NCBI GenBank assembly: GCA_964345605.1
Contig: CAYFSA010000001.1
Coordinates: 14,521-78,520 of the forward strand
Direction of reading: 5' to 3'
Origin: an uncultured Ectothiorhodospiraceae bacterium
Lineage (GTDB): Bacteria; Pseudomonadota; Gammaproteobacteria; CAYFSA01
Length of the DNA: 64,000 bases
Shown here: positions 4,423-64,000 of the stretch, one piece after another
Layout: each line of letters begins with the position of its first letter
Numbering within the stretch: position 1 is the stretch's first letter
Made by a program: the position numbers and the translations under genes
Notes under the pieces: model-generated
Databases searched by the model: none
The model's input: only the letters and a program-made list of their open reading frames with translations
What the model was told of the DNA's origin: nothing

Positions 4423-5301
4423 ATGAGCAGGAGATCAATTATCTTGAATAGCCGTGTGGGGTTGCTGATTGTCGTTGCCATGATTTTGGTCTACACAAGC
4501 CATGACCGACCGGCTGTAGCGGCCCCGCCTACCGAGCCGTCTGCCACGACAGAGCTGCTGCCCCCGCATTACCCGCAGGAAAGGGTTTTCGTGGATACCC
4601 AAAAGCTGCCCTGGCGGGCCATTGGCCGGGTCAACATGCTCGGCGGCCGGCGTTACTGCACGGGAATCCTGATTGGGGATCAGTATGCTTTGACCGCAGC
4701 GCATTGCGTGGCCGCGCTGCGCGAGCATCCCCGAGAAATCCACTTCCTCGCCGGTTTTCAACGCGATAACTATCGTGCCCACGCCCAAGCCGAAACCGTC
4801 ATCCTGTCTCCCGCTTACGCCCAAACTGACAGCAAGCGACAGCGGTTTGTCCACGACTGGGCGCTGCTTGAGCTCACCGCCCCTATCGGTCGCGAGATCG
4901 GCCATATTTCCTGGATCCCATTCGGCTTGGCAGACTTCACCAAAATCAAGCACTCAGGCTCGTTCATCGTCGCTGGTTATCGCAGTGATCGGCCTTATGT
5001 GCAAACCGCGGATCAACATTGTCGTATAATTGGCTTCACCGCCACCAGGCGCCTTTTTTATCATGGCTGTCCGCTGCGTACCGGGGATTCCGGCGGGCCA
5101 ATTCTCTGGCAGCAGAACGATGATCGCTATTTGTTGGTGGGTCTGTCGGTCGGCGGACTTATTGAGCCGCGCTCTATATCCCCTATGCAACTCAATACAC
5201 CGAATCTTAAAGTCGGCTATGCCATTCCTCTCGGGCGTCTGCAGACGACGTTTGCTACGCTAGACTTACAGCCAGCAATTATAGATTCCCATAATCATTG
5301 A
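4423..5301 (+). CDS. secreted trypsin-like (S1 family, glutamyl-endopeptidase-like) serine protease
   Basis: N-terminal signal/anchor segment. Catalytic motifs TAAHC (His) and GDSGGP (Ser) are present. Transcribed divergently from hemC. Confidence 0.8.
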   Translation: MSRRSIILNSRVGLLIVVAMILVYTSHDRPAVAAPPTEPSATTELLPPHYPQERVFVDTQKLPWRAIGRVNMLGGRRYCTGILIGDQYALTAAHCVAALREHPREIHFLAGFQRDNYRAHAQAETVILSPAYAQTDSKRQRFVHDWALLELTAPIGREIGHISWIPFGLADFTKIKHSGSFIVAGYRSDRPYVQTADQHCRIIGFTATRRLFYHGCPLRTGDSGGPILWQQNDDRYLLVGLSVGGLIEPRSISPMQLNTPNLKVGYAIPLGRLQTTFATLDLQPAIIDSHNH

Positions 5302-8120: not shown

Positions 8121-9230
8121 TCAGGTGCCGGTATTACGCCAGCGAATCGTGAATTCAACTCGATAATGAGCCTGGGTTTGCGAAATTTTCAGGGGATCGG
8201 TATCGCCGTAAGCAAGCGTCAAGCGTTCCCGTACATTATCCTGGGCAATCTGGCTGCCACGCTTACTTCCCAAACGCTTTGCACCAGGCAATGGGTTGGT
8301 GACGGCAATCGCCACACCGGCGTTTTCGCACCTCACCTCCACGGTAACAGTGCCCCCCCCAGTCGCCGGCTCGATGCCATGGTAAATAGCATTCTCGACC
8401 AACGGTTGCAAAATCAACGCCGGCACCTCGATCGCCAGGGGTACCTCCGGATCCTCACGCCAATCCACGGTCAACCGCTGACCCAGGCGCAATGACTCGA
8501 TGTTCAAATAGCGCCGGGTTATGTCCAGTTCATTGGCCAATTTGACGTGATCTTGCTGCGCCAGCGCCACGCGAAACAGATCCGCCAAATCTTCCACCGC
8601 CTGCTCGGCCCACTGTGGTGAGCTGCGCGTCAAGCTCGCGATGGTATTCATCGAATTGAACAAAAAATGCGGCCGAATCCGGGCCTGGAGGGCCTCAATA
8701 CGCATCTGGGCCGCGGTTTTGAGCGGTTGCCGGGCGCGCTGATAGACCGCGAGCAAATAGCCGGCAAGCAAGGCTACCAACATGGCGACGGCCAGATTAC
8801 GTAGGACGAAACCTAGTTCATTGGCCACCGCCCCGGCAGTGCTTGGCCCAAACGGCCAGGCCAGCACAATGACCGAGCCCAGGATCGTTACCGCAGCTAC
8901 ACAAACCAGGCCGACCGCATAGGTATAACCGGGACGCAGCTGGTTGACATAGCCTCGCAGCAGACATAGCAAACCAACCACGATCCAGGTTACCACTTGC
9001 ACGAAAGCCGAGACGGCCAGCCCGTGTGCCAGCCAGTTCGCCGTTGTCACACCGGGCGCCAAGACCAGCAGCAAGGCCAGGACTTCAGCTAACAGCAGGA
9101 TCATCAGCCCATGTCGCCACCGGCAAGCAATGGCATGCCAACGCTTGTCCGAACGCTCATCTTTAACCATGAGGTCTACCTTGCTCCCTTGCTTGCCCGA
9201 TTCCGGAAACGCACAGACAAAATGATACAC
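8121..9230 (-). CDS. LytS/AlgZ(FimS)-type sensor histidine kinase (non-canonical His_kinase/HATPase)
   Basis: Multiple N-terminal TM helices, then a LytS-type His-kinase region ([15 protein letters not shown]) and an ATPase region. Start uncertain (9230 or 9170). Divergent from argH. Confidence 0.75.
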
Positions 9231-32862: not shown

Positions 32863-33582
32863 CTAAGCAGATTGGCGAAACCGCATGTTAGCGTTACCGG
32901 TAGTAATCAGATCGCCATCCTGCAGGGCCTTGCCCTGGGCGCGCAGCGGACTGCCGTTGAGGGTCGGGACCTGCCGGCTGTTGCCGGTATCGATAAGCAT
33001 GGCAAAGAACTGGCTGCCCCGTTTGGAGATCGCAACCACGGCTTCCCCAGGGTTGCCGAGGGTCGTGACCCCGCGCTGCAGGGGAATGGTAGTGCCCGCC
33101 TGCGTCCCGCTTTCCACCCACAATGAACCCAACGGTGCCGCCGGCGAGTCGGCCTGGACAACCGTGGCACTGGCTGCCGACGCCGGTGTAGCGGGTTTGC
33201 TCGTGGCGGCTTGCACCCGGTCGGGTGGCATCGCTGCGGCTTGCGGTTTGGGCGGCACAGCAGTCCGCTCCTCCAGCGCGCCGCGCTGCGTGACCGGACA
33301 CATGAAATGCAGCAGCTCACGGCCGATCGTGATCCGGTCGCCATGGCGCAACACCCTTTTCTTGACAGGCGCCTGATTGACGTAGGTGCCGTTGGTGCTA
33401 TCGAGATCCTCGAGAAACACATCATTGAGCAGACGAATAAACCGAGCATGGTGCTGACTGACCGCCCGATTAGGAAACTGCAGATGATTGCTGGCGGCCC
33501 GGCCGATCACCACGCAGTCCTGTTCGATGGTAAATTCGTGGGTTTGTTGCGCTGCATTTTGCCACACTAGCTTCGGTGCCAT
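32863..33582 (-). CDS. FHA-domain protein (N-terminal FHA plus second degenerate FHA-like domain)
   Basis: N-terminal FHA signature, VIGRAASNHLQF...VSQHHARF...NGTYVN...GDRITIG. A Pro/Ala-rich linker follows. The C-terminal FHA-like segment runs TTLGNPGEAVVAIS...LNGSPL...GDLITTG. Confidence 0.8.
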   Translation of the reverse strand: MAPKLVWQNAAQQTHEFTIEQDCVVIGRAASNHLQFPNRAVSQHHARFIRLLNDVFLEDLDSTNGTYVNQAPVKKRVLRHGDRITIGRELLHFMCPVTQRGALEERTAVPPKPQAAAMPPDRVQAATSKPATPASAASATVVQADSPAAPLGSLWVESGTQAGTTIPLQRGVTTLGNPGEAVVAISKRGSQFFAMLIDTGNSRQVPTLNGSPLRAQGKALQDGDLITTGNANMRFRQSA

Positions 33583-33600: not shown

Positions 33601-34419
33601 TCAGTTTACCCTAGCGCGCTTGAACAGACGGGCCCACCAGGGCCCATGGCGGCGGGCCTGCCGCGGCGCCGCGCGAGCCAGCATAACGGAAACATTATCC
33701 TTGCCGCCACGGTCATTGGCGCGGGCAACCAAAGCCTCGGCGGCCTGCGCCAAATTGTTTGCATGCTTGCTCAACAAAGTGGCGATCTCGGCATCCGTCA
33801 GCATGTCGTACAGGCCATCGGTGCACAAGAGAAACAAATCATGGGGTAAGGCCAGGGTATCGCGCACATCAATGGCAACACTCGGCCCGACCCCGAGGGC
33901 CCGGGTAATGATATGACCCGGCGTGTGCACCTCCTGGGTGCGGCCAGCGTGAAGACCGCGATCTATGACCTCCTGGCGCACCGTATGATCCTGGGTCAGA
34001 CAGGTGAAATCGCCGCCGCGATAGCGATAAAGCCGGGAATCGCCCACATAGGCAAAATGAATATGGCCATCGCGCAAGATGCAGGTAACAACCGTCGTTC
34101 CCATGCCGAACTGTTCCGGATTGCGCTGAGCTTGGGCATAAATGCGGCGATTGGCCTGAACGATGGCCTGGCGCATGGCAAGCCCGAGCTCACTGCAGCC
34201 GGTGGCGGGGTCAATGCCATGGGAAGCAGGCAGCTCGTCAATTTGTTCGAGTTGCTCGAGGATGGTATCGACCGCGATGCGGCTAGCGATTTCACCTGCG
34301 TGATGGCCGCCCATACCATCGGCAACGACCAACAAATCAATTTGCTCGGCTTGGCCGATGCAGTCCTCGTTTTGCGAGCGCACCTTGCCGACATCCGATA
34401 AACCAGCCCACTCAATCAT
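33601..34419 (-). CDS. PP2C-family Ser/Thr protein phosphatase
   Basis: Metal-binding motifs VADGMGGHHAGEIAS and LLCTDGLYD. Lies 18 nt downstream of the FHA gene on the same strand. Confidence 0.85.
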   Translation of the reverse strand: MIEWAGLSDVGKVRSQNEDCIGQAEQIDLLVVADGMGGHHAGEIASRIAVDTILEQLEQIDELPASHGIDPATGCSELGLAMRQAIVQANRRIYAQAQRNPEQFGMGTTVVTCILRDGHIHFAYVGDSRLYRYRGGDFTCLTQDHTVRQEVIDRGLHAGRTQEVHTPGHIITRALGVGPSVAIDVRDTLALPHDLFLLCTDGLYDMLTDAEIATLLSKHANNLAQAAEALVARANDRGGKDNVSVMLARAAPRQARRHGPWWARLFKRARVN

Positions 34420-34806: not shown

Positions 34807-35634
34807 ATGAGTGAAGCGGTTCATGTCCGAAACACGACGCGCAGCCCGAAACATGGACAAACCATGACCAAGCCGCTGCAATGCGAATTGCACCCAGCAA
34901 CGATGAGCGAGCGCCTGCGAGTCTGGTATGGCTCACGGGTCGGCCAGGCTTTGTTGACTGAGCTGCTGCCTTATTTCGATGAACTGCTGCCCCGCCTGTT
35001 CGGATTTTACGCCCTGCAAATCGGCGCCATTGCGCCGGGCATCGACTTACTGGCTGCCAGCCGGATCCGCCATCGCGGCTGCCTGGATATCGCCGCTTAT
35101 CCGGGCTGCCTGCAAGCCGATCCGGCCGCCTTACCCATTGAATCAGCCAGCTTGGACCTATTGTTATTGGCGCATAGCCTGGATTTCGCCCCGGATCCCC
35201 ACCAAGTCATGCGCGAGGCAGAGCGCAGCCTGGTGCCGGAGGGGCATTTACTGATCATGGGATTCAACCCAATGAGTCTGTTCGGCATCTGGCGGCTGGC
35301 CCGGCTGCGACGCCATGGGCCGCCCTGGTGCGGCCGGTTTTACTCGGTGATGCGAACCCACGATTGGCTGGACTTGCTTGGCATGGATGTTTTACAAACG
35401 CATTATATGATGTTTCGCCCTCCCTGCCAGCATACCGGCTTGATGCGCCGCTGCCAGCCGTTGGAATATGCCGGCCGGCGGCTATGGCGCTATTTTGGCG
35501 GTGTTTATCTGGTCCTGGCCCGCAAGCGCGTCGCCACCCTGACGCCCATCAAACCGCGCTGGCAGCCGCGGCATGGCTTGCTGCCCGGCAAAATCGCCGA
35601 ACCCACTATCGGCCGAGCCAGCCATGGCGAATGA
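34807..35634 (+). CDS. class I SAM-dependent methyltransferase (YafS-like)
   Basis: Lies immediately upstream of rnhA-dnaQ, as E. coli yafS does. Start may be the internal MTKPLQ. Confidence 0.6.
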
Positions 35635-53636: not shown

Positions 53637-54023
53637 GTGGCTGTCCAAGAGCTCACCGCCAACGATTTTGAAAAGACCATCACCGATAACAGCATCGTCC
53701 TGATCGATTTCTGGGCACCCTGGTGTGGTCCCTGCAAGAGCTTTGCCCCTATCTATGAGCAAGTCTCTGAAAACCATCCGGATGTTGCCTTCTGCAAGGT
53801 CAATACCGAGGAAGAGCAAGCCCTGGCCACGCATTTCCAAATTCGCTCCATTCCCACGCTCATGATTTTCCGCGAGCAGGTCATCCTGTTCTCCCAACCC
53901 GGTATGCTCGCCGCCAACCAATTGGAAGAGCTGATCGACAAGGTGCGGGAAGTTGACATGGCCCAGGTTCACGAAGAAGTCCGCAAACAGCAAGCGCAGG
54001 AGCAAGAAGCCCAAGCGAGCTAG
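53637..54023 (+). CDS. thioredoxin with short acidic/Q-rich C-terminal extension
   Basis: WCGPCK active site. 128 aa. Confidence 0.85.
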   Translation: MAVQELTANDFEKTITDNSIVLIDFWAPWCGPCKSFAPIYEQVSENHPDVAFCKVNTEEEQALATHFQIRSIPTLMIFREQVILFSQPGMLAANQLEELIDKVREVDMAQVHEEVRKQQAQEQEAQAS

Positions 54024-54084: not shown

Positions 54085-54786
54085 TCAGGTTTTCCGTAGC
54101 AACAGCGGCGCTCCGTCTTGCCGATACAGCCAAAGCACTGCACCTGCCGAGGCCACGAATTCGAACAGGCTGGCATATATATCGACCTCACGGGGCCAAG
54201 GGTAAGCATAAATCAAGTCCATTTCGGCCAACCGGCACCCCATAGCGACATAAGGATCGATCTGGGTCGATGGCTGCCAGTCAGTCGCACCATAAGTGCC
54301 GTGAACGGCAAAGTCCTCCGGCGCGATAGCCGGGACAAAACTGCCAACCGCCAACTGGCCGCGCAAACCAAATTGCGCAAATAGCTCATGAGCCCCGGCG
54401 ACCAACGCCGCGTCCTGCTCGATAGCAAAGACGCGCATACCGTTGATTGCGGCAAGCCCCGCGATCAGACCCACACCACTGCCCCATTCGCAATAGTGGC
54501 TGCCGGCCAAAACCCCTTCTTTTTGCAAACTTTTTAAGTGCCTGGCGAACATTTGAGGGTCCGATAGCAGCAACGTCGTGTAAGCCGGGTGGTCGGCATG
54601 AAACGCAGCAATCCATCGTCGCCCAGTGGCGATAAATGTTTCTTCCAAAGTGCTCAGGGAGTCATTGGCAGCGGGCCATTCAATAGGTATTAGCGCCATA
54701 GCGTCGACCCACATTACAACCGGTTTTCCTGAACGCGTCGAACGCCAAGCGCTAGATTGCATGGGCCAGACAGGTCTGACAAACAA
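54085..54786 (-). CDS. small class I SAM-dependent methyltransferase-like protein occupying the effector slot downstream of VgrG-DUF4123
   Basis: Motif I HYCEWGSGVGLIAGLAA, then post-I VFAIEQD. Its start overlaps the DUF4123 gene end (or begins 37 nt after it if the internal Met is used). Confidence 0.55.
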   Translation of the reverse strand: MFVRPVWPMQSSAWRSTRSGKPVVMWVDAMALIPIEWPAANDSLSTLEETFIATGRRWIAAFHADHPAYTTLLLSDPQMFARHLKSLQKEGVLAGSHYCEWGSGVGLIAGLAAINGMRVFAIEQDAALVAGAHELFAQFGLRGQLAVGSFVPAIAPEDFAVHGTYGATDWQPSTQIDPYVAMGCRLAEMDLIYAYPWPREVDIYASLFEFVASAGAVLWLYRQDGAPLLLRKT

Positions 54787-55309
54787 GCTTGCCTGCCTTC
54801 AAGCGATAATCAAGCCAGGTGTTTTCAGTTTCCGCGGCCATCACGCAGCGGTCCACCGGCCCAAAGAATGCGGCTGCCTGGGCCTGATCGCAAGTCGGCA
54901 GGTACACCCGCAGCACGCGTGGATCATAATAACGAAAATATAGGGGCCTGCCGGTTTCATCATAGACGGTTAACAGCACGCGGCAATGTTGCCGTAAATC
55001 GCGAAAACCGGCCTGTGAGATCAAAAACACGCCCCAATGCTGCCCCCAGGGCAGCCCCAAAAGCCAATCAAGCAATGGCGACCCAAACTCTAGCTGGACC
55101 AAATATGGTGCTGCTCGAGCCAGAGCGTCATCAAGCTCACCACGCAGCAGGCAGATTGATGCCCCTTCGTAGTCGGTCAACCAACGTGGTAATTCAGGCA
55201 CCGCTGCGCCGTCCACAATGCCAAACACGTTTGCCCCGGTCGCAGGCTCAAAAAGTAACGCCTTAACAGCGTCCAGACAGTGATTGCTTGAGGTCATCGC
55301 ATCATTCAT
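54752..55309 (-). CDS. DUF4123-family T6SS effector adaptor/chaperone (Tap/Tec-like)
   Basis: ..ANVFGIVDGAAVPELPRWL.. and ..PYLVQLE.. are the hallmark DUF4123 motifs. Lies immediately downstream of vgrG. Confidence 0.7.
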   Translation of the reverse strand: MNDAMTSSNHCLDAVKALLFEPATGANVFGIVDGAAVPELPRWLTDYEGASICLLRGELDDALARAAPYLVQLEFGSPLLDWLLGLPWGQHWGVFLISQAGFRDLRQHCRVLLTVYDETGRPLYFRYYDPRVLRVYLPTCDQAQAAAFFGPVDRCVMAAETENTWLDYRLKAGKLVCQTCLAHAI

Positions 55310-55352
55310 TCAATCAGTCGGTAATTTAATGGCAACCAATGACCTAGATGCA

Positions 55353-57539
55353 TTAGCCACCTGCACATACTTCGCAAAACGGTGTACCTGCCTGGGCGGC
55401 ATTGGCCAAAGTTTGTGCCTGTTGCCGCTGATACCCCGCAACTTGAATTGGGTCCAGGCTACGCGGGCTAGTGCTGCGCTCAGCCGCTTGGGTCGTACTT
55501 AGGTCACCTGCTTGCGAAGTAACTGCCGTTTGCGGCTCCTGCGGCGCTATCGGTGCATCGGGAGAGCAACCGGCGCCGCTACCCGCGCTGCCGCCGCTAT
55601 TGATTTTTACCATCGGCCCTGAGATATCAACGCCCAGCGGCCCTACTGTGACGAAGGAACTGCCCGCCTTGATGGTCAGTTGCATGCCCGCTTCGATAAC
55701 GACGTTCATGCCGCCCTTCACATGCACGTTCATGCCGGCATCGACGGCATAATTCATGCCGATCTTATCTTGTCGATCCATACCCGTTTTCGAGGACAAG
55801 CTGCCCTCAATCTTGCTATTGTGATCACCCCCGGCCTTTTGATGTTTGTCACCATCGACCTGTTCGTATTGATCTTCTTTGATTATCAAATGCTTGTGCC
55901 TGGTGACTTGTTCTAATTGATCGTGCGCCACGAGCAGATGCCGATCTTGGCCAACCCATTCCTTGGTGGTGTTTTGGATCCGTATATCCTGGTCTTTTTG
56001 GCCATGAATAAAAATCTCTTCACTGTCTTTTTTATCTTCAAAGCGAATCTCATTAAAACCGCCTCCGCCCTTTGAACTGTTGGTCTTCCAGGTCGTTTTG
56101 GTCTTTTCATCTGGCAAGGGATAAGGCGGCATGGCTTCAGCGTTATATACACGACCGGTGACGATGGGCTTATCGGGATCGCCTTCCAAAAAACTGACAA
56201 TCACTTCCTGGCCGATACGCGGCAACATGATAGCCCCCCAGCCTTTCCCGGCCCAGTTTTGCGACACCCGGATCCAGCAGGAGCTGTTCTCATCTTTCAT
56301 CCCGTAACGATCCCAGTGAAACTGTACTTTCACCCGGCCGTATTGATCCGTCCAGACTTCTTCGCCCGGCGGACCCACCACGGTCGCAGTCTGCGGACCC
56401 TGAATCATAGGCTTGGTTGTCGTTGCCTCAGGCCGATAACTCTCCCTACTGTCAATGGCTGTAAAGGACGTCTTATAATGAGGCTCACCGGCCTCTACGC
56501 CAGCCTGACTCGTTTCAAATGCTTGCGACCCCATCTCATGTCGAGCACTTACCACCAAATATTCACGGTTTTGGGTTTGCCGCGGATGCTCCGTCAGGGT
56601 AAACAAATACCCTACCGCCAAACCACCCACATCGCCCTCTCCCGATACCACTTCGAAATTGGCATGTAACGCTTCGATACGGCGGCGCGCATACTGTTCA
56701 CCATCGGCACGCTCACTGTACAAGCCCGGATAGTCATACATTTCAAAATCCGCCTTTTCATGGTGGCGGATAAATGGGGCGTTGGCGGTTAAATCCGCCT
56801 TGGGTTTGATGAAATAATAGTCATTGAGCACCACCGAACCCGGCAGTACTTGTTTTCGGCAATCGATGTGACTGATATGTTCTTGATGAATAGGGCGATC
56901 AGAGGGACTGCAAGGGATCTCCGAGTAATTCGGGAACGCATCATGGGCACTGTAACTATCGGCTAAAACCAGGATATTCCGGCCATTTTCATGTTTGATG
57001 AAATAATAGATCCCTTCGGCTTCCAATAGGCGGCTCACGAAGGCAAAATCAGTTTCGCGATACTGCACACAGTATTCCCATTGACGATACTCGTTCGTCA
57101 GCGCATTTTCATAATCGGTGAAGCCATGCTCCCGAAACAATTCCATGACGATGGTGGGAATGTTTTTAGCCTGATAAATGCGGCAATCGGTTGTGCGCGT
57201 CAGGAACCACAACCATGGGCGCAAGACCAGTTCGTACGCCGCATACTGCCCCCGCTCGCCGATATAGCGGCATTCGCTGACAAAACCATTGAAATACCGC
57301 TCGCCACCCCGTTCTAACCGATAGCGTAGCGTTACATTCGTGCCAAGCAATGCCTCGAGTTCAATGTCGATGTCGCTGCTCAGGGCCTCGAGTCGAAATT
57401 CGGACAGCCGGCCCAACGCTTCCTGACCCATCACTCGCTGCAACAACAAGACATCTTCACCGAGCACTGTATTGACAGCCATGGATCGATAAGTCTGGGT
57501 CGCACCGGTTTTGCGCAGCTCTGCCATCGCCCTACTCAC
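55353..57539 (-). CDS. vgrG: type VI secretion system tip protein VgrG with ~80-aa C-terminal extension
   Basis: gp27-like and gp5-like (OB-fold) regions, repeated GMN-V-GG beta-helix motifs, then a G/S-rich linker and a unique tail (..PFCEVCAGG). Confidence 0.95.
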   Translation of the reverse strand: MSRAMAELRKTGATQTYRSMAVNTVLGEDVLLLQRVMGQEALGRLSEFRLEALSSDIDIELEALLGTNVTLRYRLERGGERYFNGFVSECRYIGERGQYAAYELVLRPWLWFLTRTTDCRIYQAKNIPTIVMELFREHGFTDYENALTNEYRQWEYCVQYRETDFAFVSRLLEAEGIYYFIKHENGRNILVLADSYSAHDAFPNYSEIPCSPSDRPIHQEHISHIDCRKQVLPGSVVLNDYYFIKPKADLTANAPFIRHHEKADFEMYDYPGLYSERADGEQYARRRIEALHANFEVVSGEGDVGGLAVGYLFTLTEHPRQTQNREYLVVSARHEMGSQAFETSQAGVEAGEPHYKTSFTAIDSRESYRPEATTTKPMIQGPQTATVVGPPGEEVWTDQYGRVKVQFHWDRYGMKDENSSCWIRVSQNWAGKGWGAIMLPRIGQEVIVSFLEGDPDKPIVTGRVYNAEAMPPYPLPDEKTKTTWKTNSSKGGGGFNEIRFEDKKDSEEIFIHGQKDQDIRIQNTTKEWVGQDRHLLVAHDQLEQVTRHKHLIIKEDQYEQVDGDKHQKAGGDHNSKIEGSLSSKTGMDRQDKIGMNYAVDAGMNVHVKGGMNVVIEAGMQLTIKAGSSFVTVGPLGVDISGPMVKINSGGSAGSGAGCSPDAPIAPQEPQTAVTSQAGDLSTTQAAERSTSPRSLDPIQVAGYQRQQAQTLANAAQAGTPFCEVCAGG

Positions 57540-57695
57540 TCATCGTTGTCTGAATATTTGCATAATTTTCGCAGCCAATGCACACCCACCCCCGTGGCAG
57601 GGACGCGACCAAGGTCGCGACAACCTATGCAATGGCTCCCATCACCGCCGCCCCCGTTTCAGCCTTCGCTCAGCGCGGCTTGGCCACAGCCCAGC

Positions 57696-59237
57696 TTATT
57701 GTCGCAGCGCCGTAAATACGATTCCTATGACGGGCATACCCATTTCTTGTCGTAATGTGCAAGCATGCCAGTCTTGCAAGGCAAGCCCGCACTGGGCTAG
57801 CACATTGTGCAGATAGTCAAGTGCGTGGCTATACCGCCCATGAGGGTTCAAGTGATATCCCAGGGTGGCCGGCGCCGATAATTGTTCAACCGAACCGGCC
57901 AAACATCCGCCGATTTTCAGTGAACTGGCCACAAAACCGAACAGGGTCTGCAGCGCGCCGAAATAGACCAGGGTATCTGCCGAGACTATAGCATCCAGGC
58001 TTGCTGGCGGTTGCTGCTGAAAAAAGGCGGTCAGTTCCTGCTTGATCAATTCGTCGTAATCACCGCGCAGGCGGGCCTGATCCAACATCGGGCGGGAGAG
58101 ATCCACACCGATTAGCCTTTCAGCGTAGGGCCGCAGGAGTGGACCACAAAGTCCCGTACCGCAACCCGCATCGACGATCGTCATGGCATGATTCGGCGCC
58201 CCCATGCAGCGGGCGAAGGCCTCCACAACCAAATGCGGGGCTTGGTAATCCAAACTGGCCAAACGCCGTTCGAAGCTGTTGGCAAAACCGTCGAACAACG
58301 TCTCGACATAGCGATCATCGGCCTGCGGCGGTATCGCCAAGGCGCCGCAAGCCGCCAACATATGCAGAGCTACTGGATTGCCGGGCTCCTGCTCTGACCA
58401 CTGCTGATAGCAGTGGACTGCCTCCTCCCGGCGACCGCAGGCACTTAGCAACATGCCCAAATAATAATAAGCATTGGTATGTTGGGGATTGATGTCAAGC
58501 GCACGCCGATACGCCGAGATGGCATCTTCCACCAGGCCGCGCTCACGTAAAACGGTAGCCAGCTCGGTATAGGCATCGGCACCCGCTGCCACGGCCCGAC
58601 GATAGATTTGCTGCGCCGCCTCGTGCTGTTGCTGCAGTGCCAGCGCATTACCCAGGTTATGCAGCACTTCCGGCGCTTCTGGCGCCAGTACCAGCGCATG
58701 CTGCAATTGCTCGGTCGCGCCAGGCAAATCTCCCCGCTCCTGCAGTAACCGCCCCAGATTATTGAAGGCCATGGCAAATGACGGCCGCAGTAAAATGGCC
58801 TGACGATAGGCTTGCTCGGCCTCAGCCAAACGTCCCAAGCGCCGCAGCAAAATGCCCAAGTTGTTCCAAACATCTGCAGAGGGGGCGTACTCGAGCCCGT
58901 GTCGATAGGCCAGCTCTGCCTGTTCGAGATTGCCCAAGGTCTGATACACATTGCCTAAATTATTCCAGGCATCGGCATAATCCGGAGACAAGGTGATCGC
59001 CCGTTCCAGATAGTGAATTGCCTGGTCATTGCGCCCCAGCTGATAATGTAATAAGCCAAGAAAATGCAACGCATCGGGCTGCCCGGGACTGTCGGCCAAA
59101 ATCGTTTCATAAATGCGTTTGGCCGCGGCAATTTGGCCTTGCCGCTGGTGCCGCTGGGCAACCGCTAAGGCCTCGCTTATCGGTAGAACAACATCTTCGG
59201 GGGCGGTGGCCATGGCGAAAACCGTGGGTGTTATCAA
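57696..59237 (-). CDS. TPR-repeat protein fused to class I SAM-dependent methyltransferase domain
   Basis: About 8 TPR units (..ALHFLGLLHYQLGRNDQAI..). The C-terminal MTase motif I is IVDAGCGTGLCG. Confidence 0.7.
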   Translation of the reverse strand: MITPTVFAMATAPEDVVLPISEALAVAQRHQRQGQIAAAKRIYETILADSPGQPDALHFLGLLHYQLGRNDQAIHYLERAITLSPDYADAWNNLGNVYQTLGNLEQAELAYRHGLEYAPSADVWNNLGILLRRLGRLAEAEQAYRQAILLRPSFAMAFNNLGRLLQERGDLPGATEQLQHALVLAPEAPEVLHNLGNALALQQQHEAAQQIYRRAVAAGADAYTELATVLRERGLVEDAISAYRRALDINPQHTNAYYYLGMLLSACGRREEAVHCYQQWSEQEPGNPVALHMLAACGALAIPPQADDRYVETLFDGFANSFERRLASLDYQAPHLVVEAFARCMGAPNHAMTIVDAGCGTGLCGPLLRPYAERLIGVDLSRPMLDQARLRGDYDELIKQELTAFFQQQPPASLDAIVSADTLVYFGALQTLFGFVASSLKIGGCLAGSVEQLSAPATLGYHLNPHGRYSHALDYLHNVLAQCGLALQDWHACTLRQEMGMPVIGIVFTALRQ

Positions 59238-59325
59238 AAAAATCGTTACAATTTCGTCATGCCGATTTTAGGCCCGGTCTAACCGGCCGGCTCGGATCAT
59301 GCCGCGACAGACAAACAGGAGTGCC

Positions 59326-60093
59326 TCAGCCAGCTTGGTCATCGGCATATCCTTGGGCGTTTTCCAAACGTTGCCGCAAACGGGCCAGTTCAGTTACTGC
59401 TTCGGCATGCAAGTGATCAAGCTCCTGCATCACCGCTGTACAAGCGCGCTCATTATGCCGGCGTAGACGCCCGCTCATGCTCGACTGCTGCGCTGGCGAA
59501 ACCGAGGGATTGACGCTCGGCAGCACTAATTCTTTGGCCCAAAACCATGGGCTCGCAGCATTGCACCAGGCATTTGCCAATGACGCCGGCAACGACCAAA
59601 TAACGCCCTCACTGGCCCGTGCCAATAAGGTGAATAACTGAGCGCAGTCAGCCTGATTCACCAAGGCAAAGCGTTGTAAAGCATCTGACGCTAACTGCCA
59701 ATTGGAATGGCTCAATCCGGTCATCTTGGAGCGGAGCATTGCGATAACGTCCAAGCTGGTGGCCACCGTCTGTCGGGTCAATTCTGGCCGAGCCTCTTTG
59801 TCATGAGCGACTGGCTGGGCCAAATACCGACGCTGCGCTTGCGCGATTGACCGGCCCCGCCGCTGCATGCTGGCCAAAGTTGTCATACGTTGACTTAATG
59901 CTTGGTATTGATCTGCAGCAGCAGGTAGCTTGAGCGCAGCTCCGGTCAAATCGGCCCAAGGATCGGGATATTGCTGTCTGATCTCGTCATTGGCCGCGGC
60001 GAAATACAGTGCTTGCCAGCCGGCCACGCCATGCTGCTGGGCAAATGCAGCCAGGGAGTCTCCGGCAGCGAGCGTGTAGCGATCATCCGGCAT
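59326..60093 (-). CDS. hypothetical protein with N-terminal LysM-like domain, located between clpV and vgrG
   Basis: YTLAAGDSLAAFAQQHGVAGWQALYFAAAND...LKLP fits the LysM consensus. The remainder is unrecognised. Confidence 0.5.
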   Translation of the reverse strand: MPDDRYTLAAGDSLAAFAQQHGVAGWQALYFAAANDEIRQQYPDPWADLTGAALKLPAAADQYQALSQRMTTLASMQRRGRSIAQAQRRYLAQPVAHDKEARPELTRQTVATSLDVIAMLRSKMTGLSHSNWQLASDALQRFALVNQADCAQLFTLLARASEGVIWSLPASLANAWCNAASPWFWAKELVLPSVNPSVSPAQQSSMSGRLRRHNERACTAVMQELDHLHAEAVTELARLRQRLENAQGYADDQAG

Positions 60094-60182
60094 TGTTCAG
60101 TCTCATGGTTGCTGGCAGAAAACCCTGCAGCCCTGGCAGTTGAGCCGGGCCAGATACCCGAACAGCCATGTTGCCAGGCCGG

Positions 60183-62942
60183 TCAGGCCGCCTCCTTGGT
60201 GGTGTCGAAACGATAGGCAAACTCACCATCCTGCACTGATAAGCGAACGGCCGATAGCACGGCTCCTGCCGACATATGGGTCAAAAATTCTTGACTGATA
60301 CGCGGCAGCAAGGTATTGGTCAAAATCGCATCGACCACCCGTGCGCCACTTTCAACCTCACGGCAACGCTCCGAGATCAATGCAACCACATCTTCGTCAT
60401 AGCTGAAGCTGACTCGATGATTCTCGCGCACCCGGGAAACAATACGATCCAATTGGAGATGGATAATTCGCCCCAGAATCTCGTCACTGAGCGGATAGTA
60501 AGGCACCACGACCAGCCGCCCCAACAGGGCCGGCGGGAACACCTTGAGCAGCGGTTCCCGCAAGGCCTGAGCAATGCCCTCCGGTTCGGGCATGAGTTCC
60601 GGGTCGCGACACATCCCCATAATCAAATCGGTCCCGACATTGGTCGTCAGCAGAATCAATGTATTGCGAAAGTCGATATGACGGCCCTCGGCATCTTCCA
60701 TCCAACCTTTATCAAAAACTTGGAAAAAGATTTCATGCACATCCGGATGCGCCTTTTCAACTTCGTCCAGCAAGACGACGCTGTAAGGGCGTCGCCGTAC
60801 CGATTCGGTCAATACCCCGCCTTCACCATAACCCACATAGCCCGGCGGTGCGCCTTTTAGGGTAGAGACGGTGTGGGACTCCTGAAATTCACTCATATTT
60901 AGGGTAATGATGTTTTGTTCGCCCCCGTAAAGTGCCTCCGCCAAGGCCAAACCCGTTTCTGTTTTCCCCACGCCAGAGGTACCGGTCAGCATAAACACGC
61001 CAATCGGTTTATTGGGATTGTCGAGCCCAGCCCGCGAGGTCTGCACGCGCCGGGCGATCATATCCAGGGCATGCCGCTGGCCGATTACACGCTTTTCCAG
61101 AGCACCGGCGAGATTCAGCACGGCTTCAATTTCATTTTTCACCATACGGCCGACCGGAATCCCAGTCCAATCCGCCACCACCGAGGCTACCGCCTGGGCA
61201 TCGACACTGGGCAGAATCAACGGCCTCTCGCCTTGCAACACCAATAATTCCTGTTGCCTTCGACGTAATTCGGCGAGCGCTTCTTGACGTTGTGCTGCCG
61301 TCATCCCGGGCTCATCGGCGTGGGCCGCCGCAGCGGCCGTCGACGCTGAGTTTTCAGCATGGCCCCCTTGGTCAGACTGAGGCGGCTCAGCCATCGCCAA
61401 TGCGACACCGGTACCGGCTCGCAAGCATTTGCGCAAATCCAATACGTGTGTCACCAATGCCTGCTCCTGTTGCCAGCGGCCCTCCAATTCATGCAGCTCC
61501 TCGGTTGCCTTGGCCAATGCTGCCGCTACCTGCAATTCCCGCTCACCACCCTCGATACCCATCGCTTGTTCCCTGGCCAGGATGGCTTGTTCAGTTTGCA
61601 AGGCTTCAATCCGTCGACGCACATCTTCGACCGCCGCCGGTACAGCATGCTGGCTCACTGCTACACGGGCACAGGCGGTATCGAGGAGACTGACGGATTT
61701 GTCAGGGAGCTGGCGCGCCGGAATGTAGCGATGGGAAAGCTTAACTGCCGCTTCAATGGCTTCATCGAGCACCTGTATTCGGTGGTGCTGCTCCATGGTT
61801 GATGCCACGCCCCGCATCATGATAATGGCTTTGGCCTCGTCCGGCTCATCGACATTGACAACCTGAAACCGTCGTGTCAGAGCAGGATCTTTTTCGATAT
61901 GCTTTTTGTATTCGGCCCAGGTTGTCGCTGCAATGGTTCTCAATGTCCCCCGCGCCAGGGCCGGTTTGAGCAAATTGGCCGCATCCCCGGTGCCCGCCGC
62001 ACCACCAGCGCCTATCAGGGTATGGGCCTCGTCAATGAACAAAATGATGGGCGTCGGCGAGCCTTGCACTGCGTCGATCATCTGCCGCAAACGTTGCTCG
62101 AATTCACCTTTCATACTCGCCCCGGCCTGCAGCAATCCCACATCGAGCACCCTGACTTGCACCCCCTGCAGGGGCGGCGGCACGTCCTGGGCGGCCACCC
62201 TGGCAGCAAAGCCCTCAACAACCGCGGTCTTGCCCACCCCGGCCTCGCCGGTCAATATCGGATTGTTTTGCCGTCGACGCATCAGAATATCGACGATTTG
62301 GCGGATTTCGGCATCACGGCCGACCACCGGGTCGAGTTCGCCACGGTGAGCGCGGTCGGTCAAATCGACCGTATATTGACTTAATGACGCTTGCGCTGCG
62401 GCTGAGCCTCCCTCCGGCAGAGCGCTTGCCGCCGCTGTGTCGGCATCGCCGGCTACCATTTGCTGTTCCGGTGATTCCTGCACAATTTCATTAAAACGAT
62501 CCGATAAGTCGTCAATCTTGATTTTATCGAATTCCCGGGAAATGGCCGGCAGCGCATTGCGCAAACCCGGAGTTTTCAAAATCCCAACGATCAGATGCCC
62601 GCTGCGTACCTGTTTGTCTTTAAATAACAGCGTCGCGTACACCCAGCCGCGCTCCACGGCCTCCTCAACATGCGAGGACAAATCAGAAATCGATGCCGCG
62701 CCGCGGGGCAAACGGTCCAAGGCCGCCACCATATCCTTGGCCAGTCGCGCCGCGTCCATATCATAAGCACGGCTGATACAATGCAGATCGGAATTTTGTA
62801 ACTGCAATAGCTGATGCAGCCAATGCACGAGCTCGACATAGGGATTGCCACGTAACTTACAAAAGCCGGTGGCGCTCTCGATGGCTTTGAAGGCGAGGCT
62901 ATCGAGCTTGGCAAACAAAGCGGCGCGGCTGATATCGGCCAT
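60183..62942 (-). CDS. clpV: type VI secretion system AAA+ ATPase ClpV (TssH)
   Basis: Clp-N domain. Two AAA+ modules (GEAGVGKT; GTSGVGKTE). 919 aa. Confidence 0.95.
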   Translation of the reverse strand: MADISRAALFAKLDSLAFKAIESATGFCKLRGNPYVELVHWLHQLLQLQNSDLHCISRAYDMDAARLAKDMVAALDRLPRGAASISDLSSHVEEAVERGWVYATLLFKDKQVRSGHLIVGILKTPGLRNALPAISREFDKIKIDDLSDRFNEIVQESPEQQMVAGDADTAAASALPEGGSAAAQASLSQYTVDLTDRAHRGELDPVVGRDAEIRQIVDILMRRRQNNPILTGEAGVGKTAVVEGFAARVAAQDVPPPLQGVQVRVLDVGLLQAGASMKGEFEQRLRQMIDAVQGSPTPIILFIDEAHTLIGAGGAAGTGDAANLLKPALARGTLRTIAATTWAEYKKHIEKDPALTRRFQVVNVDEPDEAKAIIMMRGVASTMEQHHRIQVLDEAIEAAVKLSHRYIPARQLPDKSVSLLDTACARVAVSQHAVPAAVEDVRRRIEALQTEQAILAREQAMGIEGGERELQVAAALAKATEELHELEGRWQQEQALVTHVLDLRKCLRAGTGVALAMAEPPQSDQGGHAENSASTAAAAAHADEPGMTAAQRQEALAELRRRQQELLVLQGERPLILPSVDAQAVASVVADWTGIPVGRMVKNEIEAVLNLAGALEKRVIGQRHALDMIARRVQTSRAGLDNPNKPIGVFMLTGTSGVGKTETGLALAEALYGGEQNIITLNMSEFQESHTVSTLKGAPPGYVGYGEGGVLTESVRRRPYSVVLLDEVEKAHPDVHEIFFQVFDKGWMEDAEGRHIDFRNTLILLTTNVGTDLIMGMCRDPELMPEPEGIAQALREPLLKVFPPALLGRLVVVPYYPLSDEILGRIIHLQLDRIVSRVRENHRVSFSYDEDVVALISERCREVESGARVVDAILTNTLLPRISQEFLTHMSAGAVLSAVRLSVQDGEFAYRFDTTKEAA

Positions 62943-63046
62943 AGTTGGCTATCCTCTACCGGGTGAAGTTGAGATTACTGGCCGGTCATTTTGTAGTTTC
63001 AATGAACGCTCAATGAATGGCACGCAGGCCGAATTGTCTCGGCAAG

Positions 63047-64000
63047 TTATAGTCCAGCAGACATCCTTGCCAAGGGGGTTAAAACGAGATCTGCTGCATC
63101 CCCGGCCCCGGCAGGACGATGCCCGAGCCAGGTTGTCCAGCCAAGTTGGCCTGTCTGCCCGAGCACCAATGCCGGCACCTCGTCTTGCAGCAAAATCAAT
63201 TGCACATCCCATTGCAGTTCATCGCCAAGATAATTGCGCACCACCGCGAGCAAGGCGGGTAAACCGGGACCGCCTGGCAGAAACTGTTCGAATCGCTCGC
63301 GGGACAAGGGGCCGATATGGATTCGAAAGCGGTACTGACATTCGAAAGCCTTCACGCCAATGATGGCTGTCTGCCCCAAACTGCCGGTTCGCGGTGAAGC
63401 ACCCAGACGACACCGGTCAGCGACCTCGATGCCAATCCACTCGCCAATAAATTCACTGAGACGAGTAGTGACCAGCAAATAACGGGTAATCATGGCTTCC
63501 AAGCCCTCAGCATTTTTGGCGACGCTTGCCAGACGCCCGGCAAAATACAATTTTGCCTTATCCTGCATCGCATCCCGATGCCGCAGGGATGGCAAACCCA
63601 AGCCGCATAAAGACGCCAGATAATCGCCAAAGCGGTCCTGCTCAGGCCGATCATGATTCACGGTCGGTTGCGCACTCGCCCAGCTCCGATAGAACAATGT
63701 GAGCAAGCGATGATGGAACATGTCAGCAAAGCCCAACAAGGTATGGTCTTTGTGGGACCGGACTCGCTCCAGGGCATATTCGGTCAAATGCAGGGGTAAC
63801 GGACCATGCGGACCGAACAGCCCTAAAAACGCCACGTTGAGCTGCATCACAGCAGGCGCTGGCAGATCTTGGCAAGTTGTCAAGCTCGCTGGCGGGAACG
63901 CCATTGCACAATCCTGCCCCAGACGAATGGGCTCTTCAGTGGGCAGAACCGCTGCGCCGATCCGGGGCTGATCGCTATAGAGACACTCCAGCCATCTCAG
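63047..64000 (-). CDS. tssG: type VI secretion system baseplate protein TssG (5' end beyond window)
   Basis: ..SLAFPPAS.. and LGLFGPHGPLPLHLTEY are TssG hallmarks. The reading frame stays open upstream of the track's Met (...IRLGQDCAMAFPPASL) to the window edge, so the true start lies outside the window. Confidence 0.8.
   Translation of the reverse strand: MRWLECLYSDQPRIGAAVLPTEEPIRLGQDCAMAFPPASLTTCQDLPAPAVMQLNVAFLGLFGPHGPLPLHLTEYALERVRSHKDHTLLGFADMFHHRLLTLFYRSWASAQPTVNHDRPEQDRFGDYLASLCGLGLPSLRHRDAMQDKAKLYFAGRLASVAKNAEGLEAMITRYLLVTTRLSEFIGEWIGIEVADRCRLGASPRTGSLGQTAIIGVKAFECQYRFRIHIGPLSRERFEQFLPGGPGLPALLAVVRNYLGDELQWDVQLILLQDEVPALVLGQTGQLGWTTWLGHRPAGAGDAADLVLTPLARMSAGL

Follow-up and report, generated by a model that had tools for sequence, protein, structure and literature searches.

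The window analysed here, 64,000 nucleotides of contig CAYFSA010000001.1 from an uncultured Ectothiorhodospiraceae bacterium, carries the distal end of a horizontally acquired gene island for a type VI secretion system (T6SS), in which the last gene, placed behind vgrG and a gene for a DUF4123 adaptor, encodes a class I S-adenosylmethionine (SAM) methyltransferase-like protein of about 205 aa. A preliminary description of the same DNA had offered two readings of this gene, namely a cargo effector with an enzymatic activity unusual for that role, or an unrelated gene that abuts the adaptor after loss of the true effector. The explanation that we favour (probability of roughly 0.6) is that the locus ends in a VgrG-adaptor module without cargo, and that its last gene is an island-borne methyltransferase that the adaptor does not load. 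Taken separately, the statement that the ~205-aa methyltransferase is not the adaptor's cargo is very probably correct, and a deletion from an ancestor resembling the related locus L012 (vgrG-DUF4123-PAAR-C70-FHA-methyltransferase) is about an even bet. In the proposed course of events a cargo module, made up of a conserved 164-aa PAAR protein (henceforth PAAR164) and small genes, would have been deleted from an L012-like order or would have its genes at some other place in the genome; this would leave the window with an 'empty' VgrG-adaptor pair, and the ~205-aa methyltransferase would be a cytoplasmic enzyme brought along with the T6SS island.

Gene identities were obtained from Pfam and NCBIfam searches of the open reading frames (ORFs) of the window, and numbers beginning with L denote relative loci or public-contig contexts. 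The genes concerned are the following.

63047 to 64000 and beyond, minus strand: tssG (PF06996, E 6.5e-91; TIGR03347), with its 5' end outside the window
60183 to 62942, minus strand: clpV/tssH, T6SS AAA+ ATPase, 919 aa (TIGR03345, 1253 bits, cut-off 885)
59326 to 60093, minus strand: conserved T6SS-locus protein of 255 aa, no Pfam family, same position in L112 and L113
57696 to 59213, minus strand: fusion of TPRs with a class I methyltransferase, 505 aa as called (ORF 57696 to 59237; TPR_1, E 8.5e-48)
55353 to 57527, minus strand: vgrG, 724 aa as called (ORF 55353 to 57539; TIGR03361, E 3e-196)
54752 to 55309, minus strand: short DUF4123 adaptor, 185 aa (PF13503, E 1e-29)
54085 to 54714, minus strand: class I SAM-methyltransferase-like gene, 209 aa as called (longest ORF 54085 to 54786; 204 aa with a start at 54699)
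53637 to 54023, plus strand: convergent thioredoxin, the first gene outside the T6SS island (TIGR01068, E 9.8e-31)

The order on the minus strand is therefore tssF-tssG-clpV-255 aa-TPR-methyltransferase-vgrG-DUF4123-~205-aa methyltransferase, where tssF is taken from a public contig (L001) that carries it upstream of a full tssG of 347 aa and whose ClpV differs from that of the window by two residues. From tssG to the convergent thioredoxin this agrees with the preliminary description.

What follows the adaptor in related loci is the first piece of evidence. The pairing of vgrG with DUF4123 recurs in four of them (L012, L112, L113 and L114), which are arranged as follows.

L012: 260-aa protein, TPR-methyltransferase, VgrG, DUF4123, PAAR (165 aa), Peptidase_C70 (180 aa), FHA (496 aa), ~205-aa methyltransferase
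L113: TssF, TssG, ClpV, 253-aa protein, TPR-methyltransferase, VgrG, DUF4123, PAAR (164 aa), DUF4347 (152 aa), 98-aa protein
L112/L111: 251-aa protein, TPR-methyltransferase, VgrG, DUF4123, Uma2, PAAR (164 aa), then proteins of 254, 150 and 73 aa
L114: VgrG, DUF4123, then three unannotated genes of 117, 368 and 207 aa

Three of these four loci thus carry the conserved PAAR164 together with variable small genes behind the adaptor, and all four have at least two small non-core genes there; the window is the only locus of the five with none. Between L012, L111/L112 and L113 the identity of PAAR164 is 80–93% and that of the VgrGs 71–85%; nothing in the 64 kb of the window matches PAAR164. Removing three genes, PAAR-C70-FHA, from the order of L012 gives exactly the order of the window, where the junction between DUF4123 and the methyltransferase gene is clean (37–52 nt, no gene remnant). 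The view that the true effector is missing is hence supported, since related adaptors precede PAAR164 and variable small genes that the window lacks; the occurrence of a canonical cargo module in relatives is also what the preliminary description itself had named as speaking against the methyltransferase as cargo. The variable small genes of these modules are candidate effectors. Further details of these modules are that the PAAR genes lie at 5003–5500 in L012, 1288–1782 in L111 and 10573–11067 in L113, that only the last ~50 residues of PAAR164 match the Pfam PAAR motif, and that a gene of the Uma2 family (putative endonuclease) is inserted between DUF4123 and PAAR at 799–1275 in L111 and 7116–7592 in L112, L111 having a second Uma2 gene 3 kb downstream.

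The two proteins that would handle a cargo are the adaptor and VgrG. The 185-aa adaptor matches PF13503 with 103.6 bits (cut-off 25.8) and has 2925 relatives at E≤1e-10, all 120 of those listed being 167–194 aa long, while its match to Tla1 is weak (positions 42–148 of a 245-position profile, well below the cut-off). The VgrG tail, previously thought to be unique and to follow a G/S-rich linker of ~80 aa, turned out to be shared: its C-terminal ~85 residues (...SG.PFCEVC) align with the VgrGs of L012, L112, L113 and L114, each encoded before a DUF4123 gene, and only ~12 of these ~85 residues are G/S-rich. All five VgrGs follow the consensus ...GRSLD..V..YQ...AA.SG.PFCEVC, the tail of the window protein ending in PFCEVCAGG. 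The two-cysteine motif ...SG.PFCEVC of this tail, common to all five proteins and encoded within 55353–55620 of the window, could be a docking or metal-binding element.

The second piece of evidence is the nature of the last gene. Its length had been given as 233 aa, an artefact of choosing the longest ORF, which opens with a TTG codon inside the DUF4123 gene and overlaps the DUF4123 stop. Four public contigs encode the same protein with 100% identity, and the gene calls there give it 209 aa and a start at 54714 (MWVDAM), with AGGAAA 10 nt upstream; an alternative start at 54699 (MALIPIE) gives 204 aa and appears to be the true one when the protein is aligned with 29 close relatives, whose sequences open with M-[PTA]-L. 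Depending on the start, 37–52 nt separate the gene from the DUF4123 stop on the same strand. Across 120 relatives 13 alignment columns are invariant (C75, W77, G78, G80, E99, A170-Y-P-W-P174, E176, F184 and L194) and the window protein keeps all of them. They include motif I of the family, CEWGSGxG (C75, W77, G78, G80), the acidic end of strand 2 (E99, the AIE of VFAIEQD) and an invariant motif of the family's own, AYPWPxE. The class I SAM-binding motif recognised earlier therefore holds, and the predicted fold agrees with it: an AlphaFold2 (AF2) model built from the 120-sequence alignment (pLDDT 92.9, pTM 0.91) has a Rossmann-like alpha/beta structure which fold searches identify as a plain class I SAM methyltransferase. 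The family profile matches PrmA in the PDB (E 3e-4) over motifs I–II. A pseudogene or spurious ORF was considered and is ruled out by the presence of all 13 family-invariant residues. Judging from this conservation, the gene is real and selectively maintained, belongs to the class I methyltransferases as a member of an unmodelled family, and probably encodes a catalytically active enzyme.

No Pfam family exists for this protein and no Pfam or NCBIfam family scores above its cut-off, the sole NCBIfam match being a sub-threshold one to BchM over the SAM-binding region. The profile and structure searches that had been proposed as a check on an effector role (Pfam, NCBIfam, PADLOC and fold searches) gave no MIX, PAAR, toxin-family or toxin-fold match nor any other effector marker, PADLOC returning nothing relevant. 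The protein is as long as its relatives outside T6SS loci, which leaves no delivery domain or N-terminal extension. With the searches for a secretion marker negative, the cytoplasm is, as far as the sequence tells, its most likely location.

By composition the gene is part of the island. The GC content at third codon positions (GC3) is 0.57–0.62 in the T6SS genes including the last one, 0.68 in the thioredoxin gene and 0.72–0.78 in the core genes beyond it (UbiX, Mpl, MlaA and ArgG lie beyond the thioredoxin), a step that marks the T6SS genes as a compositionally distinct island with its edge at ~54.0 kb. With a GC3 of 0.605, in the range of the T6SS genes and not of the core, the methyltransferase gene belongs to the island. 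A core gene merely abutting the island was entertained as a candidate and is ruled out by this value. The earlier remark that an unrelated gene abuts the adaptor was thus right as to the abutting and wrong as to the unrelated, given the island-like GC3 and the recurrence of the gene beside T6SS genes in other Gammaproteobacteria (see below). Only 61 nt lie between it and the convergent thioredoxin gene, too little for an immunity gene, whose absence had been noted correctly. A promoter and terminator scan of 53.4–60.3 kb yielded counts not above those of shuffled sequence, and so provided no operon information.

The third piece of evidence comes from the distribution of the family. A protein search recovered 308 relatives, all ~200–215 aa long, and a scan with one genome per species confirmed a match in at least 591 GTDB species genomes; what is said here of taxonomy and flanks rests on the best 80 of these 591 matches. 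Three of the 80 are from Chromatiaceae or Lamprobacter (45–49% identity). The remainder, at 28–42% identity, come mostly from Planctomycetota and Verrucomicrobiota; a few are from Lentisphaerae or 'Alcaligenaceae' metagenome-assembled genomes, and one is from a member of the Vicinamibacterales. Using tblastn, VgrG, TssG, TssM, TagF, TssBC, DUF4123 and PAAR were all absent within 10 kb of any non-gammaproteobacterial locus, where the sole matches were a weak one to an FHA domain and generic ones to kinases. Clustering of the neighbouring ORFs at 83 such loci gave no partner shared by more than 11, so that the Planctomycetes-Verrucomicrobia-Chlamydiae side offers no functional hint. Going by these neighbourhoods, association with T6SS is not a trait of the family as a whole.

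Its gammaproteobacterial branch is another matter. It comprises 30 proteins with 42–50% identity that have extra invariant residues, among them GTYGATDW at positions 139–146. T6SS or FHA genes adjoin the ~205-aa gene in eight of the ten distinct contexts of this branch that have informative flanks, a small sample in which several loci may be orthologous. Besides L012, given above, the contexts are these.

Window: DUF4123, then the ~205-aa methyltransferase
L009/L016: FHA+SLT fusion (548 aa), then the ~205-aa methyltransferase; ppkA and TssBC nearby
L014: FHA+SLT fusion, then the ~205-aa methyltransferase; ppkA, pppA and tagF nearby
L109/L110: FHA+SLT fusion (553 aa), then the ~205-aa methyltransferase; ppkA, pppA and tagF nearby
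L094: FHA, then the ~205-aa methyltransferase
L008: TssM-TagF-PppA-PpkA, then the ~205-aa methyltransferase
L007: TssBC, 1.3 kb from the ~205-aa methyltransferase
L005: BatA-D operon, then the ~205-aa methyltransferase; 10-kb flanks free of T6SS genes
L108: Tol-Pal, then the ~205-aa methyltransferase; 12.7-kb contig free of T6SS genes

Of the nine contexts other than the window, five have an FHA gene upstream, one has ppkA and the other three have different genes, none of which encodes an adaptor. In L008, L009, L012 and L109 the upstream gene is co-directional with the methyltransferase gene and 10–128 nt away. Over ~530 residues the FHA partners of L012 and L009 share just 25% identity, from which the pairing of FHA with the methyltransferase appears to be old. 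Taken together, the gene orders show a gammaproteobacterial branch that keeps company with T6SS loci and in which the preceding gene is, as a rule, an FHA gene or ppkA. A metagenome scan with the alignment of the branch gave 14 loci, nearly all on contigs shorter than 4 kb, the informative ones being just L094, with FHA upstream, and L098, with an autotransporter downstream; the short contigs L095, L097 and L098 had no T6SS gene in their little flank.

Several features of these contexts deserve recording for their own sake. The FHA+SLT proteins, 548–553 aa long and encoded directly upstream of the ~205-aa gene in T6SS loci of the Chromatiaceae type, join an N-terminal FHA domain to a C-terminal SLT lytic-transglycosylase domain (L009 6344–7990, L014 7076–8719, L109 2567–4228), and the PpkA kinases that adjoin them have a C-terminal FGE-sulfatase domain. 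A protein of ~506 aa matching both the VipA (TssB) and the VipB (TssC) Pfam families is encoded on the minus strand at 4488–6008 in L009, 5139–6656 in L007 and 6096–7619 in L114, alone beside vgrG or FHA genes and not in a tssB-tssC pair. The window itself has neither an FHA gene nor ppkA in its T6SS part. In its high-GC core region, ~20 kb off the T6SS end, there is an FHA-domain protein of 239 aa (32863–33582, minus strand) adjoined by a PP2C phosphatase of 272 aa (33601–34419, minus strand), which shares 30% identity with the T6SS-linked PppA encoded in L008; divergent to this pair is a Methyltransf_11 protein of 275 aa (34807–35634, plus strand).

Some observations weigh against an empty module followed by an unloaded methyltransferase. 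The ~205-aa gene sits directly behind the adaptor, co-directional with it and at a distance of 37–52 nt, which is the classical cargo position. Two gammaproteobacterial relatives, L005 and L108, lack T6SS genes in 10-kb flanks and on a 12.7-kb contig, respectively. In Chromatiaceae the gene is always at the edge of the locus, often adjoining an autotransporter gene, and the autotransporter is kept in L108, where the contig has no T6SS gene; the linkage may be an inherited position rather than a shared function. Autotransporter genes downstream of the ~205-aa gene are located at 8811–10826 in L007, 548–2626 in L098, 6439–8139 in L108 and 11352–13637 in L009. Finally, the window VgrG is 62–67% identical to the others and branches outside L012, L112 and L113, with L114 further out, and L114 also lacks PAAR164 behind its adaptor; on these sequences a loss in the window and a gain in the other lineage are equally parsimonious, and parsimony would not tell them apart.

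It is this last point that gives some room to the idea that nothing was lost: the window would show the ancestral order, and the partner of the adaptor, a PAAR protein or an effector, would have its gene at another place in the genome, as is the case with orphan vgrG or effector islands. The clean DUF4123-methyltransferase junction, free of any gene remnant, fits this idea as well. Against it, the small non-core genes behind the adaptor are found in every one of the four related loci and not in the window, and L012 has exactly the flanking genes of the window with PAAR-C70-FHA in between. We regard an ancestral empty order as unlikely, and it would in any case be compatible with our reading of the ~205-aa gene.

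Similarly doubtful is the notion of a passenger, a gene whose T6SS-independent role, for instance RNA, protein or small-molecule methylation, it would share with its Planctomycetes-Verrucomicrobia-Chlamydiae relatives and which would owe its edge position to shared ancestry. In its favour, most family members among the best 80 of 591 have no T6SS gene nearby, the gene is always the last of the T6SS block, its frequent autotransporter neighbour in Chromatiaceae persists in L108 with no T6SS gene on the contig, and L005 has none within 10 kb. The linkage to T6SS genes has, however, survived rearrangement, the neighbour being of five kinds (FHA-only, FHA+SLT fusion, PpkA, DUF4123 and TssBC), and the FHA partners of L012 and L009 have diverged to just 25% identity; moreover, the GC3 of the gene is island-like rather than core-like and the co-directional spacing is tight, both in L008, L009, L012 and L109 and in the window.

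That the ~205-aa methyltransferase is the true cargo effector, which DUF4123 loads on the VgrG tail and which methylates a target in the recipient while the producer is unharmed, is very improbable, because adjacency to an adaptor is confined to the lineage of the window (none of nine other gammaproteobacterial contexts), T6SS-linked relatives are preceded by FHA or PpkA genes instead, the protein belongs to a widespread non-T6SS family with no delivery domain and no MIX, PAAR or toxin-family match, and related adaptors precede a PAAR protein. What can be said for it is the cargo-like placement with no immunity gene following, the GTYGATDW motif (139–146) of the gammaproteobacterial branch, which is absent from the wider family and compatible with a new function, and the report in a 2026 paper that PA3840, a putative RNA methyltransferase, undergoes T6SS-dependent translocation in P. 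aeruginosa (PMC12841499). The same paper attributes the effect of PA3840 to a mechanism inside the bacterium (PMC12841499).

If the last gene encodes, as we favour, an enzyme that the adaptor does not load, it may act on a T6SS-related substrate, such as a component or regulator of the Fha/PpkA module; we would put the odds of this a little below even. The window has a second methyltransferase-type gene, so that, as reported before, two of them do flank vgrG, and this second one is conserved in the T6SS lineage concerned. It encodes the TPR-methyltransferase, with a match to Methyltransf_11/12/25 (Pfam) at residues 354–446. Relatives of it (44–49% identity) are found between the 255-aa gene and vgrG in L012, L112 and L113. 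The best solved match of its methyltransferase domain is METTL27 (E 1.4e-10), and its ~7 TPRs match the TPR regions of OGT and SPINDLY with E 1e-61 to 1e-33. By analogy, the combination of TPRs with a catalytic domain would be typical of enzymes that recruit protein substrates.

The neighbouring 255-aa protein, named a LysM-domain protein in the preliminary description, is less easily characterised. Pfam did not reproduce that assignment and gave no match to LysM even at E≤10. A 3-sequence profile of its first ~60 residues matched a LysM protein (4uz2, E 7.7e-6) in the PDB over the first strand-helix only, and the top seven PDB matches were mostly of peptidoglycan-binding or LysM type (MltD, YkuD, an autolysin, Ecp6). 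The protein begins directly with the LysM-like segment, with no signal-peptide-like leader, and its AF2 model from a single sequence was unusable (pLDDT 45). A homologue search retrieved only a 96%-identical copy; in L112 and L113 the corresponding place is taken by relatives with 33–37% identity, and L012 has one that matches in part. The order 255 aa-TPR-methyltransferase-vgrG is found in the window, L012, L112 and L113, clpV being directly upstream in L113. Its recurrence in the same position in independent genomes marks the pair, at the level of gene order and similarity, as a conserved feature of one T6SS lineage.

It is conceivable, though we consider it quite unlikely, that this lineage uses protein methylation in assembly, regulation or payload. 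The TPR-methyltransferase and the ~205-aa enzyme would then be dedicated T6SS enzymes that may modify VgrG, PAAR or Fha, or may themselves be exported. Post-translational control of T6SS has so far been known mainly through threonine phosphorylation, and if either enzyme modifies a T6SS component an additional layer of such control would exist. Apart from function, the window is a warning against annotating effectors from adjacency to an adaptor alone: the slot behind the adaptor holds a conserved and probably cytoplasmic enzyme, and hence a weak effector candidate. Two things are new here, a class I methyltransferase family of ~205 aa, without a Pfam model, that spans hundreds of species and one branch of which, in Gammaproteobacteria, stays beside T6SS FHA/PpkA genes, and a 255-aa/TPR-methyltransferase pair that one T6SS lineage keeps between clpV and vgrG. 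In the T6SS literature on methyltransferases, TPR or DUF4123 we did not find these genes, or the conserved position between clpV and vgrG, described.

Comparison with known systems places the elements of this locus as follows. With vgrG directly before DUF4123, the window has the ordinary Tap/Tec arrangement seen in modules of the Tap-1/Tec, Tla1 and TecT types. It departs from described VgrG/DUF4123/effector modules in having neither an effector nor an immunity gene, in its minimal adaptor of ~175–185 aa, and in the gene behind that adaptor, which is a methyltransferase of a non-T6SS family. In the TecT-TseT pair a DUF4123 chaperone serves a PAAR effector, and the PAAR-first order of the related loci resembles this. 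PA3840 parallels the window protein as a housekeeping-type methyltransferase claimed to be a T6SS substrate, a likeness at the level of description. Against PrmA, the CCoAOMT/YrrM-TrmR-like O-methyltransferases, METTL5 and Dot1-like enzymes, the ~205-aa protein shows 11–20% identity and Foldseek TM scores of 0.45–0.56, values at which no methyltransferase subfamily can be assigned. Amino-methyltransferases carry (D/N)PP(Y/F) where the ~205-aa family has AYPWPxE.

The described PpkA-PppA-Fha-TagF threonine-phosphorylation module is met again in the gammaproteobacterial contexts, where an FHA gene or ppkA immediately precedes the ~205-aa gene and pppA and tagF lie close by. To our knowledge no methyltransferase is part of that pathway as described, and we know of none among the described T6SS accessory proteins. 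The FHA proteins at these loci are not canonical TagH (16–30 bits against TIGR03354, cut-off 120), and several carry an SLT domain. Lastly, the TPR-methyltransferase is similar in its TPR part to OGT-like enzymes, which combine a TPR superhelix with a catalytic domain, and differs from them in that the catalytic part is a methyltransferase and not a glycosyltransferase.

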